A DNA stretch of 37,854 bases, from contig CAYFOQ010000001.1 in the NCBI GenBank assembly GCA_964344735.1, positions 1-37,854 of the forward strand, given 5' to 3'. The position numbers and the translations under genes are program-made. Position 1 is the stretch's first letter. Each line of letters starts with the position of its first letter. The notes below the pieces were generated by a model. That model was not told the origin of the DNA, made no database searches, and saw nothing but the letters and a program-made list of their open reading frames with translations. This document shows, piece by piece, positions 11,069 to 37,780 of the stretch. The DNA comes from an uncultured Piscirickettsiaceae bacterium (lineage in GTDB: Bacteria > Pseudomonadota > Gammaproteobacteria > GCF-002020875).

Positions 11069-11175
11069 TCCCTTAAGTAACGGTTTGCTCGCCAGACTGG
11101 TGGCACTCCGGGACATTGTAGGGCTGGAACCTGTGGTTCTAGATCAAAAATGTTGGTGTGGATGGAGGAGTGGCG

Positions 11176-12702
11176 ATGTTTGAGACGGCAGAACTGGGGC
11201 GCAAGGTCAGCAAGAGCGAGTTTCGTGAGCTGGTACCGCAATTACGTGTTGAGCTGTTAGATCTGCAGCAGCAGATCCGTAAGGCCGGGATTCCGGTAAT
11301 GATTGTACTGGCGGGAGTCGATGGGGCTGGCAAGGGGGAGACGGTCAACCTTATCAATGAGTGGATGGATCCGCGCTGGATCGAGACTCACGCCTACAAT
11401 GAGCCCTCGGATGAAGAGGTGGAGCGTCCCACCTTCTGGCGTTACTGGCGTGACTTACCGAGTCGAGGAGCAATCGCGCTGTTCATGAGTGCCTGGTACT
11501 CCAGCCCCATTCTCGACTGGGTACACGAACGTAGCGATTTCAATGACCTGGATGAGGAGCTGGGTAAGATCAACAGCTTCGAGAAGATGTTGGTCAATGA
11601 TGGTACCGTCATCATCAAGTTCTGGATGCACCTGAGCAAGTCGGCCCAGAAGCGGCGACTGAAGGCACTGGAGGGAGATCCACTGTTACGGTGGAAGGTG
11701 ACCGAGCAAGATTGGAAAAACTGGCGGCTCTATGATCGTTTCATCGAGGCGGCGGAGCGTACCATGCAGAAGAGCAGTACCGGCCGGGCCAGTTGGCACA
11801 TTATCGAGGGGGAGGATAATCACTACCGTAGTCTGGCGGTAGCCGAGATCATTCGCGATACGCTGCTACGACGGCTGGAGCTACAACAGCAGGCACTACC
11901 GGTCGTGGAGCAAGAGGGGACAGTGCCACAGGAGGAGCAGCTGGCGGCGGTAGCGGAGACCCTGAAACGCCAGCCCACCATTGTCGAACGTCTCGATAGT
12001 GATCTTCGGCTGGAGAAGAAGGAGTACAAGCGTGCCCTCAAGGAGCAGCAGGCACGGTTGAGTGACCTGTTTCGACGGGCTCGGCGTGAGGGTCGGGGAG
12101 ACTCCATCATCCTGCTGTTCGAGGGAGATGATGCTGCCGGTAAAGGTGGAGCGATTCGTCGAGTCACCGCTGCACTCGATGCCCGTTCCTATCGGGTCAT
12201 TCCGATCGCGGCCCCCACCGATGAGGAGCGTGGGCATCACTATCTTTGGCGCTTCTGGCGTCACATCCCCCGTAAGGGACGAGTCACGATCTATGACCGC
12301 AGTTGGTATGGACGGGTGCTGGTGGAGCGGGTAGAGAGGTTTGCCAGTGAGGAGGAGTGGCGTCGAGCCTATAGCGAAATCAACGATTTTGAAGAGCACC
12401 TGGTAACGGGGGGAGCGCTGTTGTTGAAGTTATGGATTCATGTCGATCCCGATGTGCAGCTGGAACGGTTCAAGCTGCGGGAACAGACCCCTCATAAGGC
12501 CTGGAAGTTGACCGAAGAGGATTGGCGCAACCGGGAGAAGCGTCCGCTCTATCAGCAGGCGGTGGATGATATGATCCAGCGCACCAGCTCTTCCATTGCG
12601 CCGTGGTTCCTGGTCGAAGGCAATGATAAATACTATTCACGGATCAAGGTGTTGACCACGGTCTGTGACCAGCTCGAGGCGGTACTGGAGAGGAATGGCT
12701 GA
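11176..12702 (+). CDS. ppk2: Two-domain polyphosphate kinase 2 (polyphosphate:AMP phosphotransferase-type PPK2)
   Basis: There are two tandem PPK2 domains, each with a Walker-A-like loop (GVDGAGKGE and GDDAAGKGG) and lid motifs (FWRYWRDLP / LWRFWRHIP, then WYSSP / SWYGRV). The ATG at 11176 has a GGAGGAG SD sequence upstream. The ORF is open from a GTG at 11158. Confidence 0.88.
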   Translation: MFETAELGRKVSKSEFRELVPQLRVELLDLQQQIRKAGIPVMIVLAGVDGAGKGETVNLINEWMDPRWIETHAYNEPSDEEVERPTFWRYWRDLPSRGAIALFMSAWYSSPILDWVHERSDFNDLDEELGKINSFEKMLVNDGTVIIKFWMHLSKSAQKRRLKALEGDPLLRWKVTEQDWKNWRLYDRFIEAAERTMQKSSTGRASWHIIEGEDNHYRSLAVAEIIRDTLLRRLELQQQALPVVEQEGTVPQEEQLAAVAETLKRQPTIVERLDSDLRLEKKEYKRALKEQQARLSDLFRRARREGRGDSIILLFEGDDAAGKGGAIRRVTAALDARSYRVIPIAAPTDEERGHHYLWRFWRHIPRKGRVTIYDRSWYGRVLVERVERFASEEEWRRAYSEINDFEEHLVTGGALLLKLWIHVDPDVQLERFKLREQTPHKAWKLTEEDWRNREKRPLYQQAVDDMIQRTSSSIAPWFLVEGNDKYYSRIKVLTTVCDQLEAVLERNG

Positions 12703-12724
12703 TATTCACCAATGGAGTGAGAGA

Positions 12725-14920
12725 ATGGAACAGAGCAGTGGGGTGGGAAGTGCAGTAGAGAACGCAAACAGCCAGGAGTGGGACCTAGAGGCACCGGATC
12801 TTTACCTCAATCGGGAGCTGACCTGGTTGGCCTTCAATCGCAGGGTGTTGCATGAGGCCGAGGATCCACGTAATCCACTGCTGGAGCGGGTAAAGTTTCT
12901 AGCCATCGTCAGTAACAATCTCGACGAGTTCTTTATGAAGCGGATCGGTGGCCTGAAGCAACAGGTGGCGGCTGGTTACAAAGAGCCCACGGTTGATGGT
13001 CGGACTCCGAGTGAGCAGATCCTGGAGTCTTGCGCCGCAGTGCGGGAGTTGCAGAGTATCCAGGGGCGAATCTGGTCTGGCCTGCGCCAGGAGCTGGCGG
13101 TCGAGGATATCCATATCGTACGCTACGACGACCTCACCGACAGTGAGCGAGACACGCTGCGTGAAGAGTTTCAGAATAAGGTGTTGCCACTGTTGACCCC
13201 ATTGGCGATGGACCCTTCTCACCCCTTCCCCTTCATCTCCAATCTCAACCTCAACCTACTGGTGACACTGCGCTATCCCGGAGAGGAGAACACGGTTTTG
13301 GCGCGGATCAAGGTGCCGATCAATAAGAAGTTCTCACCGCGCTACTATCCGGTCGAGAAACGAGATGGCCGTTATACCTTCTTGATGCTGGAAGAGTTGA
13401 TCACCCGTAATCTCGATCTGCTCTTTCCGGGGATGGAGATCGTCGCTTATGGAACCTTCCGCGTTACTCGTAATGCCAGCGTGGAGAAGAGTGAAGACAG
13501 TGCCGATGACCTGCTATCGATGATTGAGTCGGAGGTAAAGGAGAGACATTTTGCTCCCATCGTACGGTTGGAGGTGAGTCGTGGTTTTGATCCGATTCAC
13601 TGCGGCATGTTGGCGGCGGAGCTGGGTCTGGATGAACATGAAGATGTCTTCGAACTCGACAACCTGGCGCTGCACCACCTGTTCCAGATTGCGGGTCTGG
13701 ATGTTCCTTCATTGCACGACCCGGAGGCCCATCCGGTGGAACATCCGATGCTGGTGCAGGAGAACAAGAACATCTTCCACATCATTCGTAACAATGGTCC
13801 GTTGCTGCTACACCACCCTTACCAGTCATTTGCCAACTCGGTTGAGCGTTTTGTCCGTGAGGCCAGTACCGATCCCAAGGTATTGGGGATCAAGATGACA
13901 CTCTATCGTACTGCACCTGACGGCAAGTTGATCCATCATCTGATCCGGGCAGTACAGAATGGCAAACAGGTGGCGGTATTGGTGGAGATCAAGGCCCGTT
14001 TCGACGAGGCTGCCAATATCCGCTGGGCTCGTGAGCTGGAGAAACAGGGCATCCATGTGATCTATGGGGTGGTGGGGCTCAAGACCCACTGCAAGACCAT
14101 TCTGGTGGTGCGGCAGGACTATAATGGGTTGGCCCGCTACTGCCATGTCGGCACCGGCAACTATCACAGTGGTACCGCTCGACTCTATACCGATTATGGT
14201 CTACTGACACGGGATGGCAGTATCGGCCAGGATCTGACGGAGCTTTTCAATCTGTTGACCGGATATGGCCACAAGGAGCGGGAGTATCGCAAGATACTCA
14301 CCTCTCCGAAGGTGATGAAGCAGAAGCTGATCGCCAAAATTCATCGGGAGATCAGTCAGCACCGTCAACATGGAGATGGGCTGATTCAGCTCAAAATGAA
14401 TGCACTCGAGGACACCGATGTGGTCCATGCGCTTTATCAAGCGGCATTGGCACGAGTTCAGATCAATCTCATCATTCGCGATACCTGCCGGTTACGGCCT
14501 GGAATTCCAGGGTTGACCGATACGGTGTCGGTCATCAGCATCGTTGGGCGCTATCTTGAGCATGGTCGGGTCTACTATTTCTATAATCACGGTGAAGAGG
14601 AGTATTTCATCGGCTCGGCCGATCTGATGAAGCGCAATCTTGAGAGCCGGGTCGAGGTATTGGCACCGATCGAAGAGGAGGGGCTACGGCAGGAGCTGCG
14701 GATGAGTATCGATGCCCAGCTGGGTGACAAGCGTGGGGCTTGGGACATGAGTGCCGATGGTAGCTACACCCAGCGTAACCCTCAGGGTGGTCATCGCTCG
14801 GCTCAAGAGTTGCTTGCCGATGCCGCTAATAAGAGCGTTAATGCCGCCCTGCGACACCAGGAGGCGACGGTGCGTAATAAGTTGCTGAATCGATTTAAAA
14901 AGCGGTTGAATGAACAGTGA
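12725..14920 (+). CDS. ppk1: Polyphosphate kinase 1
   Basis: PPK1 hallmarks are present: YLNRELTWLAFNRRVLHEA, the autophosphorylation region RTAPDGKLIHHL, two PLD-like HKD-type regions (KTHCKTILVV, GTGNYH) and the C-terminal GSADLMKRNLESRVE. Alternative starts are 12695 (overlaps the ppk2 stop as ATGGCTGA) and 12665. The start at 12725 has the best-spaced GGAG. Confidence 0.92.
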   Translation: MEQSSGVGSAVENANSQEWDLEAPDLYLNRELTWLAFNRRVLHEAEDPRNPLLERVKFLAIVSNNLDEFFMKRIGGLKQQVAAGYKEPTVDGRTPSEQILESCAAVRELQSIQGRIWSGLRQELAVEDIHIVRYDDLTDSERDTLREEFQNKVLPLLTPLAMDPSHPFPFISNLNLNLLVTLRYPGEENTVLARIKVPINKKFSPRYYPVEKRDGRYTFLMLEELITRNLDLLFPGMEIVAYGTFRVTRNASVEKSEDSADDLLSMIESEVKERHFAPIVRLEVSRGFDPIHCGMLAAELGLDEHEDVFELDNLALHHLFQIAGLDVPSLHDPEAHPVEHPMLVQENKNIFHIIRNNGPLLLHHPYQSFANSVERFVREASTDPKVLGIKMTLYRTAPDGKLIHHLIRAVQNGKQVAVLVEIKARFDEAANIRWARELEKQGIHVIYGVVGLKTHCKTILVVRQDYNGLARYCHVGTGNYHSGTARLYTDYGLLTRDGSIGQDLTELFNLLTGYGHKEREYRKILTSPKVMKQKLIAKIHREISQHRQHGDGLIQLKMNALEDTDVVHALYQAALARVQINLIIRDTCRLRPGIPGLTDTVSVISIVGRYLEHGRVYYFYNHGEEEYFIGSADLMKRNLESRVEVLAPIEEEGLRQELRMSIDAQLGDKRGAWDMSADGSYTQRNPQGGHRSAQELLADAANKSVNAALRHQEATVRNKLLNRFKKRLNEQ

Positions 14921-18339: not shown

Positions 18340-18498
18340 ATCAACGAATGGGCGATTGTAACCAATATGGTTGGAATCGCAACCTTTGTACAAGATGCCT
18401 TACAGATACTGAAAAACCTGACACTTATTTATATGGCCTATGGTATCCTCCAGTGAGACACGGGTAGAGGGGCTCGATAGAGTGAGGGGTATGGAGTG

Positions 18499-20679
18499 AT
18501 GCACAGGATCAAGAAGGTTGAGGTAACTCGGGGTATCAGTTGGATTGAGGTGCCCGAGGTTGATCTGCGTATTCTATGCGGTTGCCCGGCCGATAGTGTC
18601 AAACATTTGATGAAGCGGGGGCTCATCATCTGGACCGAGCGTGACGGGGTGAAGTATGAGCTTGGCCCCAATGCCATCCTTCTCTCGGATGTGCTGCTGC
18701 AGAATGGGGAGTTCTCCAATCTGGCGGAGTTTCCGGTGCTGCAGATGCTCTATCGCCAGGGGATGATCATCCCTAACCACCCCAATAATACTGGACAGAA
18801 GCCACTGTTGGTCGGTAATCGTAGCCAGGTCAAGGCGCAGATGGAGTACATCTATCGCGGCAATTATGGTCTGGTCTCGAAGGAGGAGATGCTGGCGACC
18901 GGTCTCGATGAAGAGACTGCTGACGAGATGATGGCGATGAAGCTACGTTTCGCCTTCGGCAAGATTCATCCCACGGAAGAGCTGCTCGATGTGAGGGTAG
19001 TGGAAGAGGAGGCGGTGGAGATTTTCGGAGGGGTGCAGATCCGAAGGTTGTCGCGGAACGTCTATCAGGTCGATTATCAGGGTGAGACGGTCGAGGTCGA
19101 TCTCAATCTGCCGGAGGGGAAAGGTTACGAGGTCCCCTATCCGCTCGATTGCCACGATGTGCGGCGTGGATACTTCTCGGTACTTCATTCTGGGCAGGGT
19201 GATGGTTGGGATCCACAACGCCCCAGTATGTCCTCGATTCTGATGTTTCAGGGCAAGGTCTACATGATCGATGTCGGCCCCAATGTCCATGAGAATCTCG
19301 AGGCGCTCGGGATCAGCCTCAACGAGATTCATGGACTCTTTCACACGCACTGTCACGATGATCACTTCGGTGGGTTGGCAACGTTGGCCCGTTCCGGCCA
19401 CCGTATCGAGTATTACGCCACACCGCTGGTACGAGCATCGGTCACCAAAAAGCTTTGTGCTCTGCTCTCGGTGGAAGAGTCCTTTTTTGAGAAGTGTTTC
19501 AATATCAATGATCTCGAAGATGATGTCTGGAACAGTGTCGATGGATTGGAGGTTCGTCCGATCTTCTCACCCCATCCGGTCGAGACTACGATCATGCGTT
19601 TCCGTTCCCTCTGGGAGGATGGCTATCACACCTACGCGCACTATGCCGATATTGCCGCTTTCAGTGTGATCGATGGTATGTTGGAGGAGGAGGGGCGACC
19701 GGGATTGAAGCAGTCCACCATCGAGAAGGTGAAGCGGGACTATCTGGAACCGGCCAACACCAAGAAGATTGATATCGGTGGAGGGATGATTCACGGTGAT
19801 ATCGAGGATTTCGCCCACGATGAGTCGGATCGTATCATTCTTTCCCATTCGGCGGCCCCTTATTCCGATCGTCAAAAGGAGATTGGTTCCGGGGCTCCCT
19901 TCGGAGCGGTAGATGATCTGATCCCGATCTACCAGAACTACTCCTGGCGTTTTGCTATCGAGTATTTGCGCTCCTATTTCCCCTCCGCTTCCGACTACTA
20001 CATGCGGATTCTGCTTAACAACAAGGTGGAGCTGTTCAATCCGGAGTCGATCATTCTCAAGGAGGGGTATGTCAACAAGGAGATCTATCTGACACTGACC
20101 GGAAATGTGGAGATGATGAATGTGCAGGAGGGGGTCAACTGTGAGCTCTATGCCGGTACGATCATTGGCGATGTCTCCGGGCTCAATCGGGTTCCCTCCA
20201 GCTACACCTTCCGCAGCAAGAATTTTGTTCAGGCATTACGAATACCGAGCTCTCTCTTCACCGTTTTTGTGCAACAGAACGACCTTTTCAACGAGATGGC
20301 ACAGATGGAGATGCGGCGAGAACTACTGAACCGAATTCCGCTCTTTAGCGAGGCGATCTCCTATGCACTGAAAAACCGACTCTCTCATGGCGTCACTACC
20401 TTGCAGTGTGCGGTCGGAGAGCTGGTGAGTAATGATGAAGATGCCCTCTATATCCTCTACCAGGGCAGTTTGGTGGAGCAGGGTGGTGGAGAGCGAGTGC
20501 TGGAGCCAGCCGACCACTTTGGCGAAGAGGCGGCGATTATTGAGGGCGAGCCTCTGGGCCAGCGCCACTTCAAGGCCACCGAGAAGAGCGAGATCTGGTT
20601 GATCCCAGGAAATCTGTTGCGAGAGATCCCGATCCTGCTCTGGAAGGTGATGGAGAACTCTAGTAAGGGCAGCGCCTGA
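18499..20679 (+). CDS. Multidomain protein: unknown N-terminal region, metallo-beta-lactamase fold, and two cyclic-nucleotide-binding-like domains (candidate cNMP-regulated phosphodiesterase)
   Basis: The MBL metal motif H-x-H-x-D-H occurs as HTHCHDDHFGG (19342-19365). Two C-terminal CAP/cNMP-type beta-barrel regions are visible (LFNPESIILKEGYVNKEIYLTLTGNVEM... and LQCAVGELVSNDEDALYILYQGSLVEQ...HFGEEAAI). The ATG at 18499 follows a GTG at 18496. Confidence 0.8.
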   Translation: MHRIKKVEVTRGISWIEVPEVDLRILCGCPADSVKHLMKRGLIIWTERDGVKYELGPNAILLSDVLLQNGEFSNLAEFPVLQMLYRQGMIIPNHPNNTGQKPLLVGNRSQVKAQMEYIYRGNYGLVSKEEMLATGLDEETADEMMAMKLRFAFGKIHPTEELLDVRVVEEEAVEIFGGVQIRRLSRNVYQVDYQGETVEVDLNLPEGKGYEVPYPLDCHDVRRGYFSVLHSGQGDGWDPQRPSMSSILMFQGKVYMIDVGPNVHENLEALGISLNEIHGLFHTHCHDDHFGGLATLARSGHRIEYYATPLVRASVTKKLCALLSVEESFFEKCFNINDLEDDVWNSVDGLEVRPIFSPHPVETTIMRFRSLWEDGYHTYAHYADIAAFSVIDGMLEEEGRPGLKQSTIEKVKRDYLEPANTKKIDIGGGMIHGDIEDFAHDESDRIILSHSAAPYSDRQKEIGSGAPFGAVDDLIPIYQNYSWRFAIEYLRSYFPSASDYYMRILLNNKVELFNPESIILKEGYVNKEIYLTLTGNVEMMNVQEGVNCELYAGTIIGDVSGLNRVPSSYTFRSKNFVQALRIPSSLFTVFVQQNDLFNEMAQMEMRRELLNRIPLFSEAISYALKNRLSHGVTTLQCAVGELVSNDEDALYILYQGSLVEQGGGERVLEPADHFGEEAAIIEGEPLGQRHFKATEKSEIWLIPGNLLREIPILLWKVMENSSKGSA

Positions 20680-28535: not shown

Positions 28536-29166
28536 CGTATACCTCCTCCCGAACGGTTCAATGCTCGTAACTGTTCAACTCTTCTCTGTATCCGCCATTT
28601 CGATATCAGAAAATGGTCATTTATACCGGTGACACCATGAGCAGTGCTCGCGGTCATCGAAGGATAAATTCACACTTTCTGCCTTGATCTGACCCATTCC
28701 AGAGGTAACTTGAATCTGCTACAGGCAGTGGTGAATAGTTACCAATACTCAGCATCTTTTGGAAAATCAACCCTATATGGGAACGATATTGGGGTCAAGA
28801 ACTTATTGTCGCAAAAGTGTAATTTATAATGTTCTTTATAGCAGGTTGTTGAAATTCGCCAGCAGCTCTTCTCCACACAAAGTGGATGAGGGAGAGGGAG
28901 TATTGCCTAGTGGTGCTCTCGATCACTCTTCTCAAATTGGTGTGGATGAGGCGGTGAATCCCCCCAAAAAACACCAGTAACTATATGATGGTTATTTGTT
29001 TTTGTTGGTTCTGAAGTCGGGGTCGATCGAGGAGTTCGAGTCTAGGTGGGTTTTTATCGCCGGTGACTGTACCTTGTACCCAAAAGGCGTATAGTAAGTC
29101 TCAGGATCAATTCTCGGGAAGTATGGATTGCACACTTCTGCACCCAGGTATGCAATGAGGTTCGGT

Positions 29167-32100
29167 ATGTCTACGGAAACGGCAGAGCGGTATTCCGGGG
29201 GAAGGCTTCGGTACAACGGTTCAGGACTCTTTGGGGTACTGGTGGTTGCTGTGGCACTCCTTTCGGGGACGATGGAGGTGGAGGCTACTCCTGAGCAGGC
29301 GGCTGCCGAAGCGCAGCTTGGGATCGAACAGTACCGTGCCAAGCAGTACGATGCCGCCTATGGGCATCTGGCCCGCGCGGCGGAGCTTGACCCTGCCAAT
29401 GAAGATTATCAGGTCGATGCGGCGATTCTGAGCGAGATTGCTGGCGGTGCCCCTGTCCGGGCGATTCCCTACTACCACCGCGCCGCCCGTCTGGCGACCA
29501 AGCGTAAGGACTATGATGCCATTCGGGTCTACAACCTCAAGGTGTCGAAGTTGGCTGAGGTGATGCCGGAGTGGGTAGAACAGAAGGTGGCCGAGATTAA
29601 GGGGGGTAAAGAGGAGGGGGATGATGTCTGGCGCAAGGGGCGCGATCAGCTCAAGGCTTTCATTCAGCAGAAGAAATATGACCAGGCTGTCAGTGAGGGA
29701 GAGCGCTTGCTGGCACTGTCACGGGAGCAGTTGGGGGCGGCTCACCCACTAACCTTGAAGAGCTGGGGACAGCTCGCAGTGGCGATGTTTCACTCCGATC
29801 AGGTTGAAGCCGGCCTGAATCAGCTCAAACTTGCAGAGGCGGAGGCGGTTGCCGCCTACGGGCCCCAGCACCCGGAGACTCAGCGGCTGCAGATGTTGCT
29901 GGGAGAACTTTACCACGATCACGATCAGCCGCAGGTTGCGGCCGACTACTATGCCAAGGCGGCCAAGGAGTACGGTGAGTCGATCGGTGTGGGGCATCCG
30001 GACGCACTGGAAGCGGCCTATCGCCTCTCGCGTGTGGAAGAGTTGCGTGGCGATTATCTCTCGGCCTCACAGGCGCTATTGCTCAGTTGTGTCGGTGCTG
30101 CCAGAACGCTGGGCAACTATCATCTCCAGGCCGGGGAGTGTTACCAGCGTCTGGGACTGATGAACATGCGTCATGGGGACAACATCAAGGCACAGTCGGC
30201 CCTGAATAAGTCTGAGGGCATTCTGCGCAAGGTGGTGGGGAAGCGTGACCCGGCCTGGATTCAGACTCAGATCTATCGGGCTGATCTGGCTCGCTCCAGT
30301 GCCGATTTTGCCTCTGCGGAAGAGATTTTGGTGGCCATTGCCGAAGGCGAGGAGGTTACTGCACGATTGAAGTACGAGGCTAAAGGAGTACTGGCCCAGC
30401 TGTTCGAGGATCAGGGGCTCTATCCCAAGGCAGAAGCGGAGACGGTCTCGATTCTGGAGTATGAGAATGGCGCACTGGGTGAGCTTCATCCCAATGCGAT
30501 TACCACACTGAACAACCTGGCCGGGTTACAGCGCAAACAGTCCCGCCTTATCGAGGCGGAGAAGGGGTATGAGCTTGCGCTGCAACGATTCACTGAGGTA
30601 ATGGGAAAGGATCACCCCTCGACGCTGGCAGTGATGAACAACCTCGCTCTGACGCTGGAGACCCAGGGGCTCTATGATCGGGCAGAGCCGCTCTACAGAA
30701 GATCGTTGAAGATGTCGAAGGAGGTTCTGGGAGAGGTTCACCCTACGACCATTGCCAACATGAACAATCTGGCACTGCTTTATGAGAGTCAGGGTACCTT
30801 CGAAAAGGCCGAACCGCTCTACCAGCAGACGATCGAACTGCTGGTCGGAGAACGGGGGGAGGTCCACCCCGATACCATTGCAGTCAAGAATAACCTCGGC
30901 TATCTCTATCTGTTACAGCAACGTAACGAGGATGCCGTTGAGCTCTTCGATGAGGTGGTGGCCGAGTGGGAGCAGAGCCTCGGTGAGCGTCACCAGAAGT
31001 ATATGAAGGGGCTGAATAATCTCGGTCGGGTAAACCATAACCTGGGGGAGCTGGAGAGTGCCGAAGAGCTGATCAGCAGGGCACTGCAGCTGCGTACCGA
31101 GGTGCTGGGTGAGAACCACATGGATACCCTTCGCTCCCAGCATGATCTCGGTAAGCTCTATATGGATATGGAGCGCTATGAGGAGTCGCTGGAACTGCTA
31201 TTGAAGACCCGGGAACAGGCCGAACAGAACCTCGGTGAGCAGCACCCCTACACCTTCGAAACCCTCAACACCCTGGCACAGTTGCAGGAGCGCATGGAGG
31301 ATATCGAGGGGGCCTTTACCACCCAGCAGACCCTGTTCGAACGGCGTAATATCTTTCTTGATCAGATGCTCTGGGCCACCAGTGAGAATGCCCGCGAGGG
31401 TTACATTCGACTCCATAGGCCGGAACTCTACCGTCTGCTGAATATGGTCTCTGTGATGGAGCCGGCAGAGGCAGGGCGGGAGTTGGCACGGATCAGTCTC
31501 TATCGTAAGGGTCTGCTGCTGCATGTTGCGTCACAGATTCACCAGGTGACCAAGATGGCGGATGATCCGGCGTTGACCGCCATCAGTGATGAGTTGATGA
31601 ATACTCGCAAGGAGTTGGCGGCTTTGACCCTCTCTGGTCCTACCGAAGAGACGGCGGTCTCTTTCCTGGAGAAGCAGAGCACGTTGAAAGAGCGGATCAG
31701 TGAGCTGGAAGGGGAGCTGGGACGGGCCAGTACCCGATTCCGCGAGGCGGCTGAAGAGATCAACCTGGCTACCCTGGAGGCGAATCTCCCGGAGGGTGCG
31801 GCACTGGTTGATTTCATGGCCTTCCGGGATGGCGAGAACAATAGCCAACTCCAGGTGGCGATCATGAAGAACGAGGGCGGGGAGATTGGTTACGATCATT
31901 ACCTCTACGAGGATATCGAGGCGATCAACGATGCGGTAGCGATCATCCGTGAAGTGATTCAGGATGAGTATGTTGGTGAGGATGAGCTGATCGATGTCGG
32001 GATTGAGACCTATGACATGATCTGGGCTCCGATCGCGGAGAAGCTGGGAGAGGTGGGAGAGGTCTATGTGGTACCAGACGGTATGCTCAATATCCTCCCC

Positions 32101-33048
32101 TTCAATGCGATGGTGACCGAGGATGAGGAGTATCTGCTGGCGGCACTCGATATCCACTCCATATCCTCCAGTCGTGACCTGATCCCCTCCTCGATTCCGG
32201 TTGCCGCCGGGGGTTATATGATTATGGCGGGACCGGACTACGACACCGATGAGGTGACTGGGAAAAGTGTCCTGGCTTCGCTCAACGGCAAGCGTTCTGC
32301 GGCAGCAGCCAATCAGGCAATGCGAGGTATGGCTCACGGAATGCGTGGGCTCAGTTTTGCGCCGCTACCGGGTGCCGAGGAGGAGGGACGGCAGATCAAG
32401 GAGCAGATCGGCGAGAGTGGTAGCGATACACTGGCCAGCTTGATTCAGCGTAAAGAGGCACAGGAAGAGCTGTTGCGTAAGATCGAGCCCCCGACCGTCC
32501 TCCATATTTCGACACATGGATTTTTTCTCAAGCCTAATGAAGAGTTGAAGAAGCGCTTGAGTAAGCTGACGCGTGGTGCCGATCTGCAGATCCCGCCTCC
32601 AGGGGACAACCCGCTGATGCGAGCTGGGCTCGCCTTTGCCGGGCTCAATGCCAATGCAAAACTATTGGGTGAGATCGATACCGACAATGATGGGGTATTG
32701 ACGGCACTGGAGGTACTGGGGCTCAATCTGACGGGAACCCGTTTGGCTATCCTCTCCGCCTGTGAAACCGGACTGGGAGAGGTTCACGAGGGTGAAGGTG
32801 TCTACGGTCTGCGCCGTTCCTTCCAGGAGGCGGGTGCTGGTGCGGTGGTCAACTCGCTGTGGGAGGTGAGCGATGCCGGAACCCAGGCGCTGATGAACGG
32901 ACTCTACCAACGCATACTGGAGGGAGAGGATGTCCACTCGGCGTTGCGGAATACGCAACTGGATATGTCTCAGTCTGATGAGTGGGCACATCCCTACATC
33001 TGGTCGGCATTCTTCATGGTAGAGGGTGCTGTGCGCTCGGATTCGTAG
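29167..33048 (+). CDS. TPR-repeat CHAT-domain (caspase-like) protease with an N-terminal hydrophobic/signal segment
   Basis: N-terminal LFGVLVVAVALLSG. A long array of about 42-aa TPR units follows (HP.T...NNLA.LY..QG....AEPLY, roughly 30470-31320, plus more degenerate TPRs upstream). The C-terminal CHAT domain has His in LHISTHGFF (32515-32517) and Cys in LAILSACETG (32761-32763). The ATG at 29167 has a GAGG 6 nt upstream. The ORF is open from 29128, with another ATG at 29155. Confidence 0.88.
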   Translation: MSTETAERYSGGRLRYNGSGLFGVLVVAVALLSGTMEVEATPEQAAAEAQLGIEQYRAKQYDAAYGHLARAAELDPANEDYQVDAAILSEIAGGAPVRAIPYYHRAARLATKRKDYDAIRVYNLKVSKLAEVMPEWVEQKVAEIKGGKEEGDDVWRKGRDQLKAFIQQKKYDQAVSEGERLLALSREQLGAAHPLTLKSWGQLAVAMFHSDQVEAGLNQLKLAEAEAVAAYGPQHPETQRLQMLLGELYHDHDQPQVAADYYAKAAKEYGESIGVGHPDALEAAYRLSRVEELRGDYLSASQALLLSCVGAARTLGNYHLQAGECYQRLGLMNMRHGDNIKAQSALNKSEGILRKVVGKRDPAWIQTQIYRADLARSSADFASAEEILVAIAEGEEVTARLKYEAKGVLAQLFEDQGLYPKAEAETVSILEYENGALGELHPNAITTLNNLAGLQRKQSRLIEAEKGYELALQRFTEVMGKDHPSTLAVMNNLALTLETQGLYDRAEPLYRRSLKMSKEVLGEVHPTTIANMNNLALLYESQGTFEKAEPLYQQTIELLVGERGEVHPDTIAVKNNLGYLYLLQQRNEDAVELFDEVVAEWEQSLGERHQKYMKGLNNLGRVNHNLGELESAEELISRALQLRTEVLGENHMDTLRSQHDLGKLYMDMERYEESLELLLKTREQAEQNLGEQHPYTFETLNTLAQLQERMEDIEGAFTTQQTLFERRNIFLDQMLWATSENAREGYIRLHRPELYRLLNMVSVMEPAEAGRELARISLYRKGLLLHVASQIHQVTKMADDPALTAISDELMNTRKELAALTLSGPTEETAVSFLEKQSTLKERISELEGELGRASTRFREAAEEINLATLEANLPEGAALVDFMAFRDGENNSQLQVAIMKNEGGEIGYDHYLYEDIEAINDAVAIIREVIQDEYVGEDELIDVGIETYDMIWAPIAEKLGEVGEVYVVPDGMLNILPFNAMVTEDEEYLLAALDIHSISSSRDLIPSSIPVAAGGYMIMAGPDYDTDEVTGKSVLASLNGKRSAAAANQAMRGMAHGMRGLSFAPLPGAEEEGRQIKEQIGESGSDTLASLIQRKEAQEELLRKIEPPTVLHISTHGFFLKPNEELKKRLSKLTRGADLQIPPPGDNPLMRAGLAFAGLNANAKLLGEIDTDNDGVLTALEVLGLNLTGTRLAILSACETGLGEVHEGEGVYGLRRSFQEAGAGAVVNSLWEVSDAGTQALMNGLYQRILEGEDVHSALRNTQLDMSQSDEWAHPYIWSAFFMVEGAVRSDS

Positions 33049-33162
33049 TGTGGTGAGGTGGTGTTGGTGTGGACGGAAAGGGGTAGGGTTGGTCTGGATA
33101 AAATGATTTGTTAGAGTAAGCTGTATTGGTATAAGTGTGAGGCTATTGAAAGGAGTAGAAAG

Positions 33163-34167
33163 ATGAGTCGGATGATTAAAATCATAGCAACACTGGTGCT
33201 TTCACTGCTGTTGGTGGTGCAGGGAGAGTCCGTGTTGGCTGCGGGTAAGAAAAGCAGGGCACCGGTCACCATGATCATGAACGTGGAAGGGACGGTGGAG
33301 TACAGCAAGAATGGTACGAAGTGGAAAAAGGTCCGTCGTAACAAGTTCCTCTTCCCAGGATACATGATTCGTACCGGAGCGGATGGTAAGGGAACCTTCC
33401 TCAATCAAGAGAGCAATCTGTCTCGTGACATGAGTGGGGATTCTGAGGTCACTATTACTGCGGCTGGTGCCGAGGCGACCAAGGGGGCCCTCTCCGAGCC
33501 GGTTGCTGGTAGTGGCGATCTGGTGGCCAGTCTTGGCAATCGCTTCAAGAAGGGGCAAAAGTACACCACCGTGCGCCGTGGCTTGAAGATCAAGCTGGGT
33601 TCTGCCAGTCACTCCAAGAGTAGCCCCTACAAGCTCTCTGCCGCATGGCCAGAGCTGATTTGGGATAATGTGTTGGAGAATGATGTGGTCAAGCAGGGTT
33701 CGAAGATCACTGATGAGAACTATAGCGAGTTCAGCTATCGCCTGACCATCGACAAGCAGACCGTCGAGGTTCCAGCACCCAAGGGAGAGTTGGCGGTTCG
33801 TTTTGCCCTCAAGGATATGTTGCCAGGCAAGCATAAATACAAGGTTGAACTGCTGCGCAATGGTGAGATGGTCTCTGAGAAGGTAAGGCGTGCCAGTAGC
33901 TTCATCTGGATCGATGCTGCGGAAGAGAGTGCAATCAAGGGTCGGTTGGCCTCTCGTGGTGGTGATGAGTTACTGGAGGCAATCTCTCTCGACAATGACG
34001 GTATCAAGGTGGGTGCACTCGATATCTATACCAAGTTCTTTGCCGAGAACCTCGATGAGGTAGATATGCGTCCGCAGATGCTGGAGCACATTCGTGGTCT
34101 GAAGCTGGGTGAGCTGCTCTCGCACGAGGGCACACTCTACGAGAAGCTGTTGGCAGAAGAGGGTTAG
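33163..34167 (+). CDS. Secreted FecR-domain-like protein
   Basis: The signal peptide is MSRMIKIIATLVLSLLLVVQGESVLAAG. An N-terminal segment resembles the FecR sensor fold (NVEGTVEYSKNGTKWKKVRRNKFLFPGYMIRTGADGKGTFLNQES). An AAAGGAG SD sequence is upstream. The remainder has no motif I recognise. Confidence 0.6.
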   Translation: MSRMIKIIATLVLSLLLVVQGESVLAAGKKSRAPVTMIMNVEGTVEYSKNGTKWKKVRRNKFLFPGYMIRTGADGKGTFLNQESNLSRDMSGDSEVTITAAGAEATKGALSEPVAGSGDLVASLGNRFKKGQKYTTVRRGLKIKLGSASHSKSSPYKLSAAWPELIWDNVLENDVVKQGSKITDENYSEFSYRLTIDKQTVEVPAPKGELAVRFALKDMLPGKHKYKVELLRNGEMVSEKVRRASSFIWIDAAEESAIKGRLASRGGDELLEAISLDNDGIKVGALDIYTKFFAENLDEVDMRPQMLEHIRGLKLGELLSHEGTLYEKLLAEEG

Positions 34168-34199
34168 TCCAATTCGCTAGCCGTTCGATGTGGTAATAG

Positions 34200-34233
34200 C
34201 CCGCGGCCCTGTTGAGGGGTCGCGGGTTTTTTT
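34200..34233 (+). terminator. Rho-independent terminator after the FecR-like gene
   Basis: CCCGCGGCCC-TGTTGA-GGGGTCGCGGG forms a stem-loop followed by TTTTTTT. Confidence 0.8.
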
Positions 34234-34315
34234 ATCCCCAGTGCCCATTGAGTAGGGAGATTTAGGTAGACTATCCTGCATCTACGGGAAACTGGCCAGA
34301 GACTGGAGGCGGAGT

Positions 34316-36394
34316 ATGAAAAAAATCCTGGGTCGTTATGACATTCTGATCACCATCGCCCTCTTTTTGGCGATGATTCCAGCGGAGTATAACGAGACCT
34401 TTGCTCTGTTGGAGGAGCAGACGCTCTCCTTCCGGCAGATTCTCAGAATGACCAGTGGAGACCCGGAGCAGACCAGCTTCTCCAGTGATGACATCATCAT
34501 GGTCAATACCGATGAGGCCTTCTTTGCAGAGTACGGTAGCTTCCCACTACGGCGTACCGATATTGCACAAATCGCCTCGCAGTTGGATAAAATGGGGGCC
34601 AGAGTGATCGCACTCGACGTCTTGATGGACTTCCCCAGCTCCTACAATGAGGATCCCGAAACAGCGGAGATGTTACGAGAGACCGGTAAGGCACTATTGG
34701 TCTCTCAGGCACAGATCGTAGATGGTAAGTTTCAGGGGATGAACTACCCCACCGAGGCCTATCGGGATGCCGCCAAGAGTGGTTACACCAACATCTCTTC
34801 CTCCAGCTCGATTATTACCAGCCTCTCCAAGCTCAAGGTGCGTGATGATACCATCGAGGTGACCGATGGTTGGCCGTTTGCGGTACAGGCGTTATCGATG
34901 TATTACGGTGCTGAGCCGGCTCTGGTGAAAGAGGGAAAGAAGACCTATCTCACGATTGGTGACATGGTCAAGGTACCACTGGATCACCATAATCAGTTCC
35001 ACATCGACTTCCCCGCACTGCCGAACGGAACTCAGTTTCTCTATGAGACTGCCGGCATGAGCGCAATGGAGATCCTGGATCTGGACGAAGATGAGGTGGA
35101 GGATTACTCTTATCTCTTCGATGGCAAGATCGTGGTTGTTGGAGATACCTCAGAAGTATCTCACGACTGGTTCGACACACCGGTTGGGATGGTCTACGGG
35201 GTGGAGATCATCGCTGATAGCATCCATACTCTGATGCGGGGAGCACCGTTGCAGCCCGCCAGCCAGGAGCTGGAGTATCTGGTGCTGGTGGTGGTGATGA
35301 CATTGATGCTAATGCTGAGCTTTATCACCAGTCCGACCATCAAATTCTTGCTCACCGCACTGATTTTTGTCGCCTATGGTGGGGTTGTCACCAAACTTTA
35401 TATTGATCAGGGAACGGTCTTCGCCATGAGCTACGTGTTGGTCGCAGCCTTTCTCTCTTATCTGGTGATCAACCTGCGTCACTACCTGTTGGAGCGTGAC
35501 CAGAAGGGGTTTGTTACCGCAGCATTTGGACAATACCTCTCGCCCGATGTGGTTGATGCGCTGGTGAAGGATCCCTCCAAGATGTCGCTCGGGGGCGAGA
35601 GCCGAGAGATGACCGCATTCTTCTCCGATGTAGCCAGCTTCTCTACCATCTCTGAGAAGTTGACTCCAGGAGAGTTAGTGGCTCTTCTGAATGAGTACCT
35701 GACGGCGATGTGTGACATCATTGCGGGGACCGGAGGCACCATCGACAAGTTCGAAGGGGATGCCATCATCGCCTTCTGGGGAGCACCGCTGGAGCAACCG
35801 GACCATGCAGTACGAGCCTGTTACAGTGTGATCGATCAGCAGAAGTTTCTCGTTCCCTTCCGTGAGGAGCAGATCAAGAAAGGGTGGCTGCCGGTCGAGT
35901 TCCGGGTCCGTATGGGGGTCAACTCTGGACCGATGATCGTCGGTAATATGGGCTCGAAACAGCGCATGGACTACACTATGATGGGCGACTCGGTCAATCT
36001 GGCCGCACGGTTGGAGGGGGCCAACAAGTTCTACAAGAATCACTCCATGATCTCCGAATCCACCTATGCTCAGGCCAAGGATTTTATCGATGTGCGTGAG
36101 CTCGACTCTATCCGGGTGGTGGGTAAAAAAGAGCCGGTCACGGTCTACGATGTGTTGGAACGGAAAAATCAGACCAGCGGTAAGATGGCGGAGGTGGTAC
36201 CGATCTACCTGCGAGGGTTGGAGCTCTACAAGCAGCTCGATTTTGTGGCGGCCCAGCAGGAGTTCCGCAAGGCACTCGCCATTTTGGAGAACGATGGTCC
36301 ATCGCTTACCTATGTCGATCGTTGTCAGCACTTCATCGACAATCCACCTGCGCCGGACTGGGATGGGGTCTGGACCCATACCGAAAAGGGGTAG
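34316..36394 (+). CDS. CHASE2 sensor domain-containing class III adenylate/guanylate cyclase
   Basis: An N-terminal TM is followed by a roughly 290-aa extracytoplasmic region typical of CHASE2 (IIMVNTDE...RVIALDVLMDFPS...VVVGDTSE..HDWFDTP), then three TMs. The class III cyclase core is present (MTAFFSDVASFSTISE ... IDKFEGDAIIAFWGAP ... RVRMGVNSGPMIVGNMGS ... DYTMMGDSVNLAARLE). A short TPR-like tail ends the protein. A GGAGG SD sequence is upstream. Confidence 0.9.
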   Translation: MKKILGRYDILITIALFLAMIPAEYNETFALLEEQTLSFRQILRMTSGDPEQTSFSSDDIIMVNTDEAFFAEYGSFPLRRTDIAQIASQLDKMGARVIALDVLMDFPSSYNEDPETAEMLRETGKALLVSQAQIVDGKFQGMNYPTEAYRDAAKSGYTNISSSSSIITSLSKLKVRDDTIEVTDGWPFAVQALSMYYGAEPALVKEGKKTYLTIGDMVKVPLDHHNQFHIDFPALPNGTQFLYETAGMSAMEILDLDEDEVEDYSYLFDGKIVVVGDTSEVSHDWFDTPVGMVYGVEIIADSIHTLMRGAPLQPASQELEYLVLVVVMTLMLMLSFITSPTIKFLLTALIFVAYGGVVTKLYIDQGTVFAMSYVLVAAFLSYLVINLRHYLLERDQKGFVTAAFGQYLSPDVVDALVKDPSKMSLGGESREMTAFFSDVASFSTISEKLTPGELVALLNEYLTAMCDIIAGTGGTIDKFEGDAIIAFWGAPLEQPDHAVRACYSVIDQQKFLVPFREEQIKKGWLPVEFRVRMGVNSGPMIVGNMGSKQRMDYTMMGDSVNLAARLEGANKFYKNHSMISESTYAQAKDFIDVRELDSIRVVGKKEPVTVYDVLERKNQTSGKMAEVVPIYLRGLELYKQLDFVAAQQEFRKALAILENDGPSLTYVDRCQHFIDNPPAPDWDGVWTHTEKG

Positions 36395-36433: not shown

Positions 36434-37780
36434 ATGGCAAAGACCGAGTACGAAGAGTGGGCCCGAGTCTCTAGCAATCGCACGCGCCCCTTTCATCACC
36501 TGCTGCTCTTTGCAGTCGTGTTAGTGGTGGTGGTGGCGCTGGTCTGGGCGGATCATGCTGTTCTGGATGAGGTGACCCGAGGGGAGGGAAGAGTAATTCC
36601 CTCATCACAGGTACAGGTGATCCAGAACCTCGAGGGTGGGATCGTCGAGGAAATTCTGGTACACGAGGGGGAGGTCGTCGAGAAAGGGCAAGTGGTGTTG
36701 CGTCTCTCAGATACCCAGTATATCTCTGAGGCCCGTCAAAACCGACTCGAGGTGCTCTATCTGCTGGCAAAGATCGCGCGGCTGGAGGCGGAGGTGGCGG
36801 GTCAGCCCTACCGTCCACCAGCCGAGGTTGTGGCCGAACAGGCCGACTTCTCTGACAGTGAGGCTGCGGCCTACCTGGTACGTCGCTCCGAATTGGCGGC
36901 ACAGACCGATGTGCTCAACGCCCAACGTCTGCAACGAGAACAGGAGCTCTCCGAGAAACGTGCCAACATCTCCAATCTGGAGCAGGGATTGACGCTCTCC
37001 CATGAGGAGTACAAGATCGCTCAGCGCGAGCTTGAGATCGCGGAGAAGGTACGCAAGATCAAGGTGATGTCAGAGGTCGAGATGGTGCGCCTGAAACGCG
37101 ATCTGGCCCGTCTGGAGCGAGAGTTACACACCCTGCAGACCGAGTATGATGCCAACCTCAACGCCATTCCGCGACTGGAAGCAACCATTTCCGAGATCGA
37201 TCGCCGGCTCGAGAGTGAACGACTCACCTTTGTTGCCCGTTCTACCCAGGAGTTGAGTGAGGCTCGTGCTATGCTCTCCCGAGGGCAAGAGAAGCAGAGT
37301 ACGCTCAACGATCGTCTCCAGCGGACAGAGATTCGCTCTCCGGTCTATGGTGAAGTGAAACGAATCAAGGTGAGTACGATTGGTGGGGTAATCCAGCCGG
37401 CGATGGACATCATGGAGGTGGTGCCGCTCAATGACCAGCTGTTGATCGAAGCCAAAATCCGTCCTGCCGATATCGGTTTTCTGCGTCCCGATCAGCAGGC
37501 GATGGTCAAGTTTACCGCCTACGATCCCACGATCTATGGAGGCATACCGGCACAATTGGAGCAGATCAGTGCAGACACCATTGTCGATGAGAAGGGGGAG
37601 AGCTACTACCGTGTACGGCTCAGAACCGAACGTAACGCCCTGGGGAGTGAGGAGAAGCCACTGCCGATCATTACCGGAATGACGGTCACCGTAGAGCTGT
37701 TAACCGGGGAAAAGACGGTGCTTGATTACCTGCTCAAACCGATTCTCAAGGCTAGGCAGAATGCCTTGCGTGAGCGCTGA
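36434..37780 (+). CDS. HlyD-family type I secretion periplasmic adaptor (membrane fusion protein)
   Basis: 448 aa with an N-terminal TM, HlyD lipoyl/hairpin/beta-barrel motifs (GEGRVIPSSQVQVIQNLEGGIVEEILVHEGEVVEKGQVVLRL), a long coiled coil, and the C-terminal GMTVTVELLTGEKTVLDYLLKP typical of T1SS adaptors. Confidence 0.92.
   Translation: MAKTEYEEWARVSSNRTRPFHHLLLFAVVLVVVVALVWADHAVLDEVTRGEGRVIPSSQVQVIQNLEGGIVEEILVHEGEVVEKGQVVLRLSDTQYISEARQNRLEVLYLLAKIARLEAEVAGQPYRPPAEVVAEQADFSDSEAAAYLVRRSELAAQTDVLNAQRLQREQELSEKRANISNLEQGLTLSHEEYKIAQRELEIAEKVRKIKVMSEVEMVRLKRDLARLERELHTLQTEYDANLNAIPRLEATISEIDRRLESERLTFVARSTQELSEARAMLSRGQEKQSTLNDRLQRTEIRSPVYGEVKRIKVSTIGGVIQPAMDIMEVVPLNDQLLIEAKIRPADIGFLRPDQQAMVKFTAYDPTIYGGIPAQLEQISADTIVDEKGESYYRVRLRTERNALGSEEKPLPIITGMTVTVELLTGEKTVLDYLLKPILKARQNALRER

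Follow-up and report, generated by a model that had tools for sequence, protein, structure and literature searches.

The stretch of DNA analysed here (hereafter the window), positions 1 to 37,854 of contig CAYFOQ010000001.1 from an uncultured Piscirickettsiaceae bacterium (GCA_964344735.1), carries three adjacent genes that are almost certainly a gammaproteobacterial orthologue of the mtx cluster of magnetotactic bacteria. They encode a predicted exported TPR-CHAT protease, a homologue of the protein MtxA and a CHASE2 adenylate cyclase, and the locus is an added gammaproteobacterial member of a known, functionally unsolved cluster. As an overall explanation, which includes MtxA as a partner protein and the protease as an accessory, we lean, without great confidence, towards an envelope-sensing cyclic AMP (cAMP) module of the mtx type. 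The genes lie at 29167–33048 (1293 amino acids from the ATG at 29167, with the reading frame also open from a TTG at 29128), 33163–34167 (334 amino acids, predicted to be secreted) and 34316–36394 (692 amino acids). All three are on the forward strand, so that the three co-directional genes described in a first-pass annotation made from the sequence alone were correctly delimited. Each has a plausible ribosome-binding site: GAGG 5 nt upstream of ATG 29167, AGGAG for the second gene and GGAGG for the third.

The assignment to mtx relies on the MtxA Pfam domains of the second gene product, on homologues already named MtxA, and on the presence of the same genes in the same order in Magnetococcus MC-1 and Magnetofaba (IT-1). 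The order CHAT, mtxA, cyclase is common to the window and these two genomes, and we confirmed a CHAT domain in their Sel1/TPR proteins. The same three families with the same Pfam architectures thus occur in the mtx cluster of magnetotactic bacteria, with identities between MC-1 and the window of 35–40% for MtxA, 43% for TPR-CHAT and 60% for the cyclase. The Magnetospirillum clusters are arranged differently, with mtxA followed by the cyclase and then CHAT; in the metagenomic locus L032, whose MtxA is 99.65% identical to that of strain MSR-1, the order is mtxA, CHASE2 cyclase, TPR-CHAT and a gene for a metallo-β-lactamase-fold and cyclic-nucleotide-binding protein (MBL-cNMP). According to the account of Richter 2007 given in PMC4439547 and to PMC5088516, the cluster was named from the comparative genomics of magnetotactic bacteria; it lies near the magnetosome island in Magnetospirillum (PMC4439547). 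The host of the window belongs to a marine Thiotrichales/Piscirickettsiaceae-like lineage represented by metagenome assemblies only, with no magnetosome genes in the window. The original definition by magnetotactic host or magnetosome linkage therefore finds no counterpart there, but this definition is outdated and does not exclude the locus. In PMC4439547 and PMC5088516, the large gene is termed Sel1/TPR or signal-transduction gene, with no mention of its CHAT domain or export. We found there no description either of pairing statistics, of a relation of MtxA_N to FecR or retention modules, of a caspase-MtxA fusion or of a linked MBL-cNMP gene.

To define the conserved core of the cluster, we compared 91 MtxA loci from genomes and metagenomes, forming 65 clusters at 90% identity, and scored their neighbours by tblastn. 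A CHASE2 gene directly follows mtxA in 45 of the 49 clusters with at least 700 nt of downstream sequence. MtxA and a CHASE2 receptor are near-obligate gene neighbours and make up the conserved unit. TPR-CHAT is a recurrent accessory whose linkage survives changes of gene order: it was found in 18 of 33 informative clusters, upstream of mtxA in 12 and downstream of the cyclase in 6. The linkage of the three families, in two gene orders, extends over Gammaproteobacteria, Magnetococcales, Magnetospirillum-like loci and one 4.7-Mb genome, well beyond the close relatives of the window. The MtxA family, abundant in Magnetococcales, is also present in assemblies labelled Gammaproteobacteria, Deltaproteobacteria/SAR324 and Pseudomonadales. 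In a marine lineage lacking CHAT, genes for a CHASE2 Ser/Thr kinase, a PP2C phosphatase and an FHA protein stand directly upstream of mtxA (L052 5939–9774, L015 1–3382 and ~20 other loci, with only decayed remnants in L039 and L040), and the same block precedes mtxA in the 4.7-Mb genome that has CHAT. Each of these kinase-bearing loci thus has a CHASE2 receptor on both sides of mtxA, and the two differ in output, the 5′ one being a kinase and the 3′ one a cyclase. Each of the three components was also met once by itself: MtxA as an orphan in L010, a cyclase orthologue in L017 and TPR-CHAT in L011. One locus from a gammaproteobacterial assembly (L004 4073–17008) shows a tandem duplication, with CHAT and MtxA followed by a second CHAT, an MtxA 49% identical to that of the window and a cyclase; a stop codon or frameshift (14221/14222) interrupts its second CHAT.

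The product of the second gene begins with a signal peptide (33163–33240, rule-based, VLA before A), as the first-pass annotation had recognised. It matches three Pfam families in succession: DUF7354/MtxA_N (2.2e-29; 33256–33504), MtxA_IG-like (3.9e-16; 33724–33891) and MtxA_C, a TPR-like C-terminal domain (2.7e-10; 33952–34143). It is 38.5% identical (E 3e-71) to the crystallised MtxA of M. gryphiswaldense MSR-1 (MGR_0208), a protein with a signal peptide and a solved C-terminal half composed of Ig-like and TPR-like domains (4Z29; PMC4439547), and the family profile matches 4Z29 at 8.5e-118. Homologues annotated as MtxA exist in Magnetococcus massalia, Magnetococcus marinus MC-1 (Mmc1_3696) and Magnetofaba australis. 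The earlier remark that the trio had no experimental characterisation consequently needs amendment, as MtxA has both a crystal structure (4Z29) and a deletion mutant; it holds in that the function is unsolved. The best-conserved segment in the family alignment lies between the N-terminal and Ig-like domains and reads F-x3-Q-(K/R)-Y-T-T-V-R-R, in the window F128-x3-Q132-K-Y134-T-T-V-R138-R139 (33544–33579), an invariant motif. Some of the metagenome loci were gathered through the YTTVRR motif itself, which makes its conservation circular for those; it is intact in loci recovered independently of it, including L016 and L010. In an AlphaFold2 model, this segment is a low-confidence helix and the N-terminal domain an all-β fold with pLDDT above 90. 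Only a trypsin-generated fragment of MSR-1 MtxA was crystallised (PMC4439547). Since this fragment begins ~10 residues after the motif (numbering inferred from the 4Z29 alignment), the linker region is accessible to proteases in vitro.

A Foldseek search with the modelled N-terminal domain returned one convincing match, to the periplasmic retention or "plug" domain of the RTX adhesin MpIBP (5IX9; probability 1.00, TM score 0.74 normalised to the target, root-mean-square deviation 1.7 Å over 66 columns). This structure has served as template for the retention module of LapA, beside which the LapG protease cuts (bioRxiv 10.1101/198937). A LapG-type TAAG site that we noticed at MtxA residues 99–102 was dismissed as a chance occurrence, since it is not conserved in the family. 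The first-pass annotation had called the second protein FecR-like. We rejected direct membership of the FecR family: PF04773 gave no Pfam match to the gene product at E ≤ 10, and hhalign of the MtxA alignment against E. coli FecR gave a probability of 0.05. The anti-σ architecture of FecR is likewise absent from MtxA, which has only a cleavable signal peptide. The label is nonetheless acceptable at the level of remote homology, and at that level only. Among the 244 relatives retrieved with the MtxA_N profile from 1.84 billion proteins, three (P0409, P0432 and P0434) are matched with E values of 3e-9 to 8e-6 over a stretch that Pfam FecR (down to 3e-36) overlaps in part, namely the region just N-terminal of PF04773 and its first third. 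P0434 combines FecR, TPR and a TonB-type barrel, and P0388 carries DUF7354 together with a weak FecR match. In three other relatives (P0412, P0419 and P0423), a response-regulator receiver domain is fused to a DUF7354/MtxA_N-like domain, and therefore this fold appears to serve in the cytoplasm too, as a module for output or interaction.

The third gene encodes the receptor. Pfam detects CHASE2 (3.3e-31; ~34364–35308), placed between the first two transmembrane segments, and Guanylate_cyc (2.8e-18; class III cyclase domain at 35605–36142), and a transmembrane scan located helices at residues ~5–21, 322–338, 342–358 and 369–385 (segments 2–4 at 35279–35470). Because the N-terminus is positively charged and there are four transmembrane segments, CHASE2 is predicted to face outwards and the catalytic domain the cytoplasm. 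Alignment with solved cyclases revealed the full set of class III catalytic residues (D438, D482, K480, T554, N562 and R566), comprising the two Asp that bind metal, the Asn and Arg of the transition state, and the Lys/Thr substrate pair. K480 and T554 point to ATP as the substrate, and the set as a whole is characteristic of class IIIb adenylate cyclases, of which CyaB is one. The closest solved relatives of the domain are CyaB itself (3R5G, 9e-35) and Cya2-type domains, and the whole protein is 60% identical to its MC-1 orthologue; sequence searches found no solved CHASE2 structure. The transmembrane scan, Pfam and these alignments agree with the TM-CHASE2-3TM-class III cyclase organisation and intact motifs reported earlier.

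The first gene encodes a protein with nine TPR_12 stretches and a C-terminal CHAT domain (1.7e-69, 234.9 bits against a cut-off of 24; residues 962–1298, numbered from TTG 29128; 32011–33021). The catalytic dyad consists of H1130 in VLHISTHGFF (codon 32515–32517) and C1212 in LAILSACETG (codon 32761–32763), exactly the codons singled out beforehand, and both residues are invariant across 22 non-redundant CHAT domains. The AlphaFold2 model of the domain (pTM 0.83) matched, in Foldseek, the TPR-CHAT protein of craspase (8d9h_E, 3.1e-10), DdvA (8rot_A, 9.2e-8), separase (5fc2_B, 1.1e-5) and also gingipain. The alignment with craspase spans ~380 columns against ~306 for DdvA, and DdvA is the closest solved structure by sequence. 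On the evidence of the model, the gene product is a CHAT protease with a predicted separase/craspase-type fold and a competent-looking dyad. Its orthologues in Magnetococcus MC-1 and Magnetofaba (Sel1, TPR_12 and CHAT proteins) share 43% identity with it. An EF-hand-like 12-residue loop, DTDNDGVLTALE (32677–32712, residues 1184–1195), lies 17 residues before the Cys; we did not retain it as a calcium site, calcium binding being uncertain because several homologues have K, R, T, G or V at position 3 of the loop.

The N-terminal hydrophobic segment of this protein, noted in the first-pass annotation together with the TPR array and the CHAT domain, corresponds to a Sec-type signal peptide, MSTETAERYSGGRLRYNGSGLFGVLVVAVALLSGTMEVEA before TPEQ (29167–29286), with a hydrophobic core and a VEA cleavage motif. 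All TPR-CHAT homologues examined, from gammaproteobacterial, Magnetococcales, Magnetospirillum-like and other lineages, share an N-terminal layout in which positive charges precede a hydrophobic core and a cleavage motif of the AxA type, although their peptide sequences are unrelated, and one orthologue has a lipobox. CHAT is thus predicted to be exported, and not cytoplasmic, in the window and in all these homologues. The signal peptides of the first two gene products and the topology of the cyclase agree with the earlier proposal that the sensor or protease parts of all three proteins are extracytoplasmic.

The spacer between mtxA and the cyclase gene, 148 nt in the window, contains an intrinsic-terminator-like hairpin followed by seven T residues (34198–34235; 13-bp stem at 34198–34228, with 9 G-C pairs). 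Of 58 distinct sequences between mtxA and the cyclase gene, ~33 contain a hairpin with a T-run. The loci concerned are gammaproteobacterial, marine CHAT-less, Magnetococcus or Magnetospirillum-like, and their stems are unrelated in sequence; in some relatives the spacer leaves no room for such a structure. It has the appearance of a conserved element, a partial terminator or a stabiliser of the mRNA, that would raise the periplasmic partner over the receptor, a pattern familiar from the operons of binding-protein-dependent transporters. The hairpin had been interpreted as a terminator separating the first two genes from the cyclase. The structure itself is real, but it provides no argument for a functional separation because it recurs at the same position across lineages.

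These features suggest how the module may work. MtxA would be a dedicated periplasmic partner of the CHASE2 ectodomain, a co-sensor or an inhibitor, present in excess over the receptor thanks to the conserved partial terminator, and its state would set the rate of cAMP synthesis. That periplasmic sensing by MtxA and CHASE2 drives cAMP production in this way seems to us fairly likely. TPR-CHAT would be an accessory periplasmic regulator in about half of the lineages: a protein signal caught by the TPR array would activate the protease, which would most likely cleave the exposed invariant linker of MtxA, or else the CHASE2 ectodomain, and thereby change the level of cAMP. Proteins that bind cNMPs, among them the MBL-cNMP protein encoded at 18496–20679, would sense this cAMP and probably break it down. 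We regard proteolytic gating of the MtxA-CHASE2 module by CHAT only as a tentative idea, and its more specific form, a periplasmic caspase-like switch in which protein-triggered cleavage of the MtxA linker or CHASE2 ectodomain lifts an inhibition of the cyclase, as rather doubtful. Three precedents support the logic of gating. The Sinorhizobium meliloti cyclase CyaD1 makes cAMP constitutively when deprived of CHASE2, which implies that this domain is inhibitory (PMC5498481); the CHAT protein of craspase (Csx29) cleaves Csx30, a small protein encoded by the adjacent gene (as summarised in PMC11506125); and DdvA offers a case of transmembrane signalling by a periplasmic TPR-CHAT protein. In addition, P0388 (L099 115–2139) has a signal peptide and a Peptidase_C14 caspase domain with intact His/Cys dyad fused to a complete MtxA, whose linker motif reads KHYTTIRA, and may be taken as Rosetta-stone evidence tying MtxA to a caspase-fold protease.

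Several observations weigh against this scheme. In 15 of the 33 informative clusters the flanks contain no TPR-CHAT gene, absence being scored where upstream sequence of at least 1.5 kb and downstream sequence of at least 8 kb were available (32 clusters were undeterminable on this basis), and protease gating therefore cannot be a general mechanism. The proteolytic switch over cAMP or cGMP advanced in the first-pass annotation is accordingly weakened as a general mechanism, while the intact protease and cyclase motifs and the extracytoplasmic location of the relevant parts on which it was built stand. The YTTVRR motif is equally invariant without a CHAT gene nearby, so that it is not solely a CHAT cleavage site. 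The caspase-MtxA fusion is represented only once, on a metagenome contig of 3 kb, where the following gene resembles, by eye, a solute-binding protein and not CHASE2. In the two cyanobacterial-type loci that hold the nearest CHAT relatives outside the clade, there is no MtxA or CHASE2 neighbour. The signal peptides were called by hydropathy, the -3/-1 rule and conservation rather than with a trained predictor, and the MtxA-CHASE2 interaction and the cleavage by CHAT are proposals. Deletion of mtxA in M. gryphiswaldense left magnetosomes and magneto-aerotaxis as in the wild type, without a detectable phenotype (PMC4439547), and the FecR and TPR proteins of the S. meliloti cAMP cascade are dispensable for signal perception (PMC5498481).

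This last point leads to another reading, in which MtxA and TPR-CHAT are envelope effectors downstream of cAMP and cluster with the cyclase for co-regulation, that is, outputs and not inputs. The S. meliloti cascade comprises CyaD1/CyaD2/CyaK and Clr, with SMc02177 (FecR domain), SMc02178 and the secreted TPR protein SMb20495 (PMC5498481). SMc02177 is clustered with cyaD1 (smc02176), a CHASE2 cyclase gene, SMb20495 is encoded elsewhere, and both are activated by Clr/cAMP and needed for the downstream phenotype rather than for perceiving the plant signal (PMC5498481). Because the FecR and TPR proteins are cAMP-regulated targets there, information may flow in either direction, and the hairpin upstream of the cyclase gene would allow separate regulation. 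However, mtxA adjoins CHASE2 receptors specifically, including a kinase, which makes the ectodomain and not cAMP the common denominator, and the S. meliloti precedent is partial since SMb20495 apparently lacks CHAT. A tblastn search of PLSDB with the CHAT domain gave no S. meliloti match (the presence of pSymB in PLSDB being unverified), and the TPR-CHAT protein of Shinella has neither a pSymB orthologue nor a cyclase neighbour. Overall, we judge the output reading unlikely, though worth keeping in mind. A release system for adhesins resembling Lap, in which CHAT and MtxA would control a type I secretion pore or giant adhesin and the cyclase would couple it to cAMP, appears improbable. The resemblance of the MtxA N-terminal domain to the 5IX9 retention/plug domain and the type I secretion or giant genes near several loci speak for it: HlyD downstream of the cyclase in gammaproteobacterial loci, ABC transporter and HlyD genes in L031, HlyD in L068 and L088, OEP and ABC genes in L011, and the giant genes of MC-1 and Magnetofaba. 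Yet this structural link is a single Foldseek match of a small β-sandwich; MtxA is Sec-exported and not type-I-secreted, the TAAG sequence is unconserved, and LapG (PF06035) and LapD (PF16448) gave no Pfam match. Type I secretion genes are moreover common in general and absent from most MtxA loci.

Two further possibilities carry very little weight. CHAT proteases of type III-E CRISPR, CBASS and gasdermin systems, the regulation of a defence island by DdvA (PMC11506125) and matches of the cyclase domain to PADLOC PycC models could suggest an anti-phage or abortive infection role, with CHAT as effector protease and the cyclase producing an alarm nucleotide. The PycC matches, however, cover only the generic class III domain, PADLOC returned otherwise only generic TPR matches and no defence model for CHAT or MtxA, and the substrate-specifying residues are those of adenylate cyclases. 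In many assemblies the cluster keeps its synteny amid housekeeping genes of the chromosome, and the window annotation contains no CRISPR, SAVED, gasdermin, toxin, Cas7-11/Csx30 or CD-NTase genes, as had been observed before for CRISPR, gasdermin and toxin genes. We consider this role highly improbable. A signalling cluster specific to magnetotaxis has, in our estimation, the smallest chance of all and is largely refuted already. The name derived from magnetotactic genomes, the proximity to the magnetosome island in Magnetospirillum (PMC4439547) and the abundance of the family in Magnetococcales favoured it, but the mtxA mutant has wild-type magnetosomes and magneto-aerotaxis (PMC4439547), the family extends to Gammaproteobacteria, SAR324/Deltaproteobacteria and Pseudomonadales, and no mam genes occur within the 37.8-kb window.

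Turning to further genes around the cluster, the MBL-cNMP protein (18496–20679, forward strand; 727 amino acids, Pfam) is 48% identical over 723 amino acids to the product of the gene directly after TPR-CHAT in three Magnetospirillum-type loci (L030, L032 and L041), where it also carries a hemerythrin domain. Its architecture resembles that of GbpA/B, the Dictyostelium cNMP-activated class IIb phosphodiesterases (PMC11988041). By analogy it is a candidate recurrent fourth partner, a putative reader or degrader of cAMP, which would fit the phosphodiesterase found in the Campylobacterota CHASE2-cyclase cluster (PMC9239204). An HlyD-family type I secretion adaptor (36434–37780, forward strand; TIGR01843, 371 bits against a cut-off of 209) begins 39 nt past the cyclase stop codon and holds the same position in all gammaproteobacterial relatives. 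No gene for an ATP-binding cassette (ABC) or TolC partner is in view beside it in the window; it is possibly co-transcribed with the cyclase, and its tie to the module is a lead rather than a finding. Elsewhere, a type I secretion ABC transporter and HlyD are encoded divergently upstream of mtxA (L031 5199–8548, reverse strand), an HlyD homologue has the equivalent position in L068 and L088, and OEP and ABC genes follow the TPR-CHAT gene of L011. Giant genes on the reverse strand lie divergently upstream of the trio in Magnetococcus MC-1 (L007 1–4884; >2,500 amino acids with Cadherin/Big_9 repeats) and in Magnetofaba (L009 1–5194; >2,700 amino acids, without recorded Pfam match). The neighbourhood in the gammaproteobacterial relatives is rich in cAMP-signalling genes. 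In one locus (L018 15706–17979), in a part that lies past the end of the window, a second adenylate cyclase, cytoplasmic and of GAF-GAF-PAS type, and a TPR protein are encoded after HlyD and a 293-amino-acid protein without family match.

The remaining genes of the window are housekeeping ones (mreBC, PBP2, rodA, gatAB, ppk1, ppk2, ornithine/aspartate carbamoyltransferase and motAB). The genes for PPK2, with two PPK2 domains, and polyphosphate kinase 1 adjoin at 11158–14920 on the forward strand. The annotation of the window shows no gene for an extracytoplasmic function (ECF) σ factor or TonB receptor near the trio. The assemblies most closely related to the window are marine and bear the labels Piscirickettsiaceae, Thiotrichales or Gammaproteobacteria; in them the synteny of DUF1538, the trio and HlyD is fully kept.

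To our knowledge, no ligand has been known since 2003 for CHASE2, although this sensor domain is widespread in bacteria. For MtxA, a structure has been available since 2015 without a function, and periplasmic CHAT has been studied in one example, DdvA, whose trigger is unknown. The pairing of MtxA with CHASE2, the exported CHAT in about half of the lineages and the one fusion join these three questions. If the protease switch were true, what CHASE2 senses would be a protein partner dedicated to it, the cyclase would be the first protease-gated nucleotide cyclase in bacteria, and MtxA would be a further use of the retention-module/FecR β-fold, through which the switch might be connected with type I secretion. 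The label "magnetotaxis" is misleading in any event, mtx being better seen as a probable general envelope-to-cAMP module of several marine lineages.

Comparable CHASE2-cyclase/FecR/TPR clusters are already known from Campylobacterota and Sinorhizobium, although our literature search found no paper naming CHAT, CHASE2 and FecR together. In Campylobacterota, a four-gene cluster encodes a CHASE2 adenylate cyclase, a cAMP phosphodiesterase, a FecR-domain protein of the outer membrane and also a TPR protein, for which its authors predict a single pathway spread by horizontal transfer (PMC9239204). It shares with the mtx cluster and its MBL-cNMP neighbour the CHASE2 cyclase, a FecR-type protein, a TPR protein and a putative cAMP-degrading enzyme, the functional link being a prediction; its FecR protein is located in the outer membrane (compare P0434), whereas MtxA is a soluble protein of ~315 amino acids. 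The S. meliloti cascade has in common CHASE2 cyclases, a FecR-domain protein clustered with a cyclase and a large exported TPR protein in the pathway, but the TPR gene SMb20495 is unlinked, on pSymB, and the biology is specific to plant symbiosis. In Burkholderia, a LysM/FecR protein occurs with a CHASE2 kinase (PMC5192318).

On the protease side, the LapD-LapG-LapA system (bioRxiv 10.1101/198937) ties a periplasmic cysteine protease to an inner-membrane second-messenger protein, and the layout of LapA, with a retention-module fold, a cleavable linker and Ig-like domains, is that of MtxA. LapG, however, is transglutaminase-like and not caspase-fold, LapD senses cyclic di-GMP from inside, and the substrate is a type-I-secreted giant adhesin. 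The CHAT proteins of craspase and those associated with gasdermins or CBASS share the TPR-CHAT architecture and fold, as well as the logic by which a triggered CHAT cleaves a protein encoded next to it; they differ in being cytoplasmic, activated by RNA or nucleotides and devoted to defence, and none of their partner genes is in the window. It was thus correct that the trio is not one of the described defence contexts of CHAT, but a periplasmic TPR-CHAT protein has a precedent in DdvA, which regulates a defence island and is an anti-σ factor proposed to act as a signal-activated site-1 protease (PMC11506125). DdvA shares with the protein of the window the periplasmic TPR-CHAT part, the His/Cys dyad and a role in transmembrane signalling, which for the latter is a prediction; it is membrane-anchored, fused to its own anti-σ output acting on an ECF σ factor, and without the three-helix active-site element. 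Unlike DdvA, the TPR-CHAT protein of the window is predicted to be a free exported protein, encoded beside a cAMP-producing receptor.

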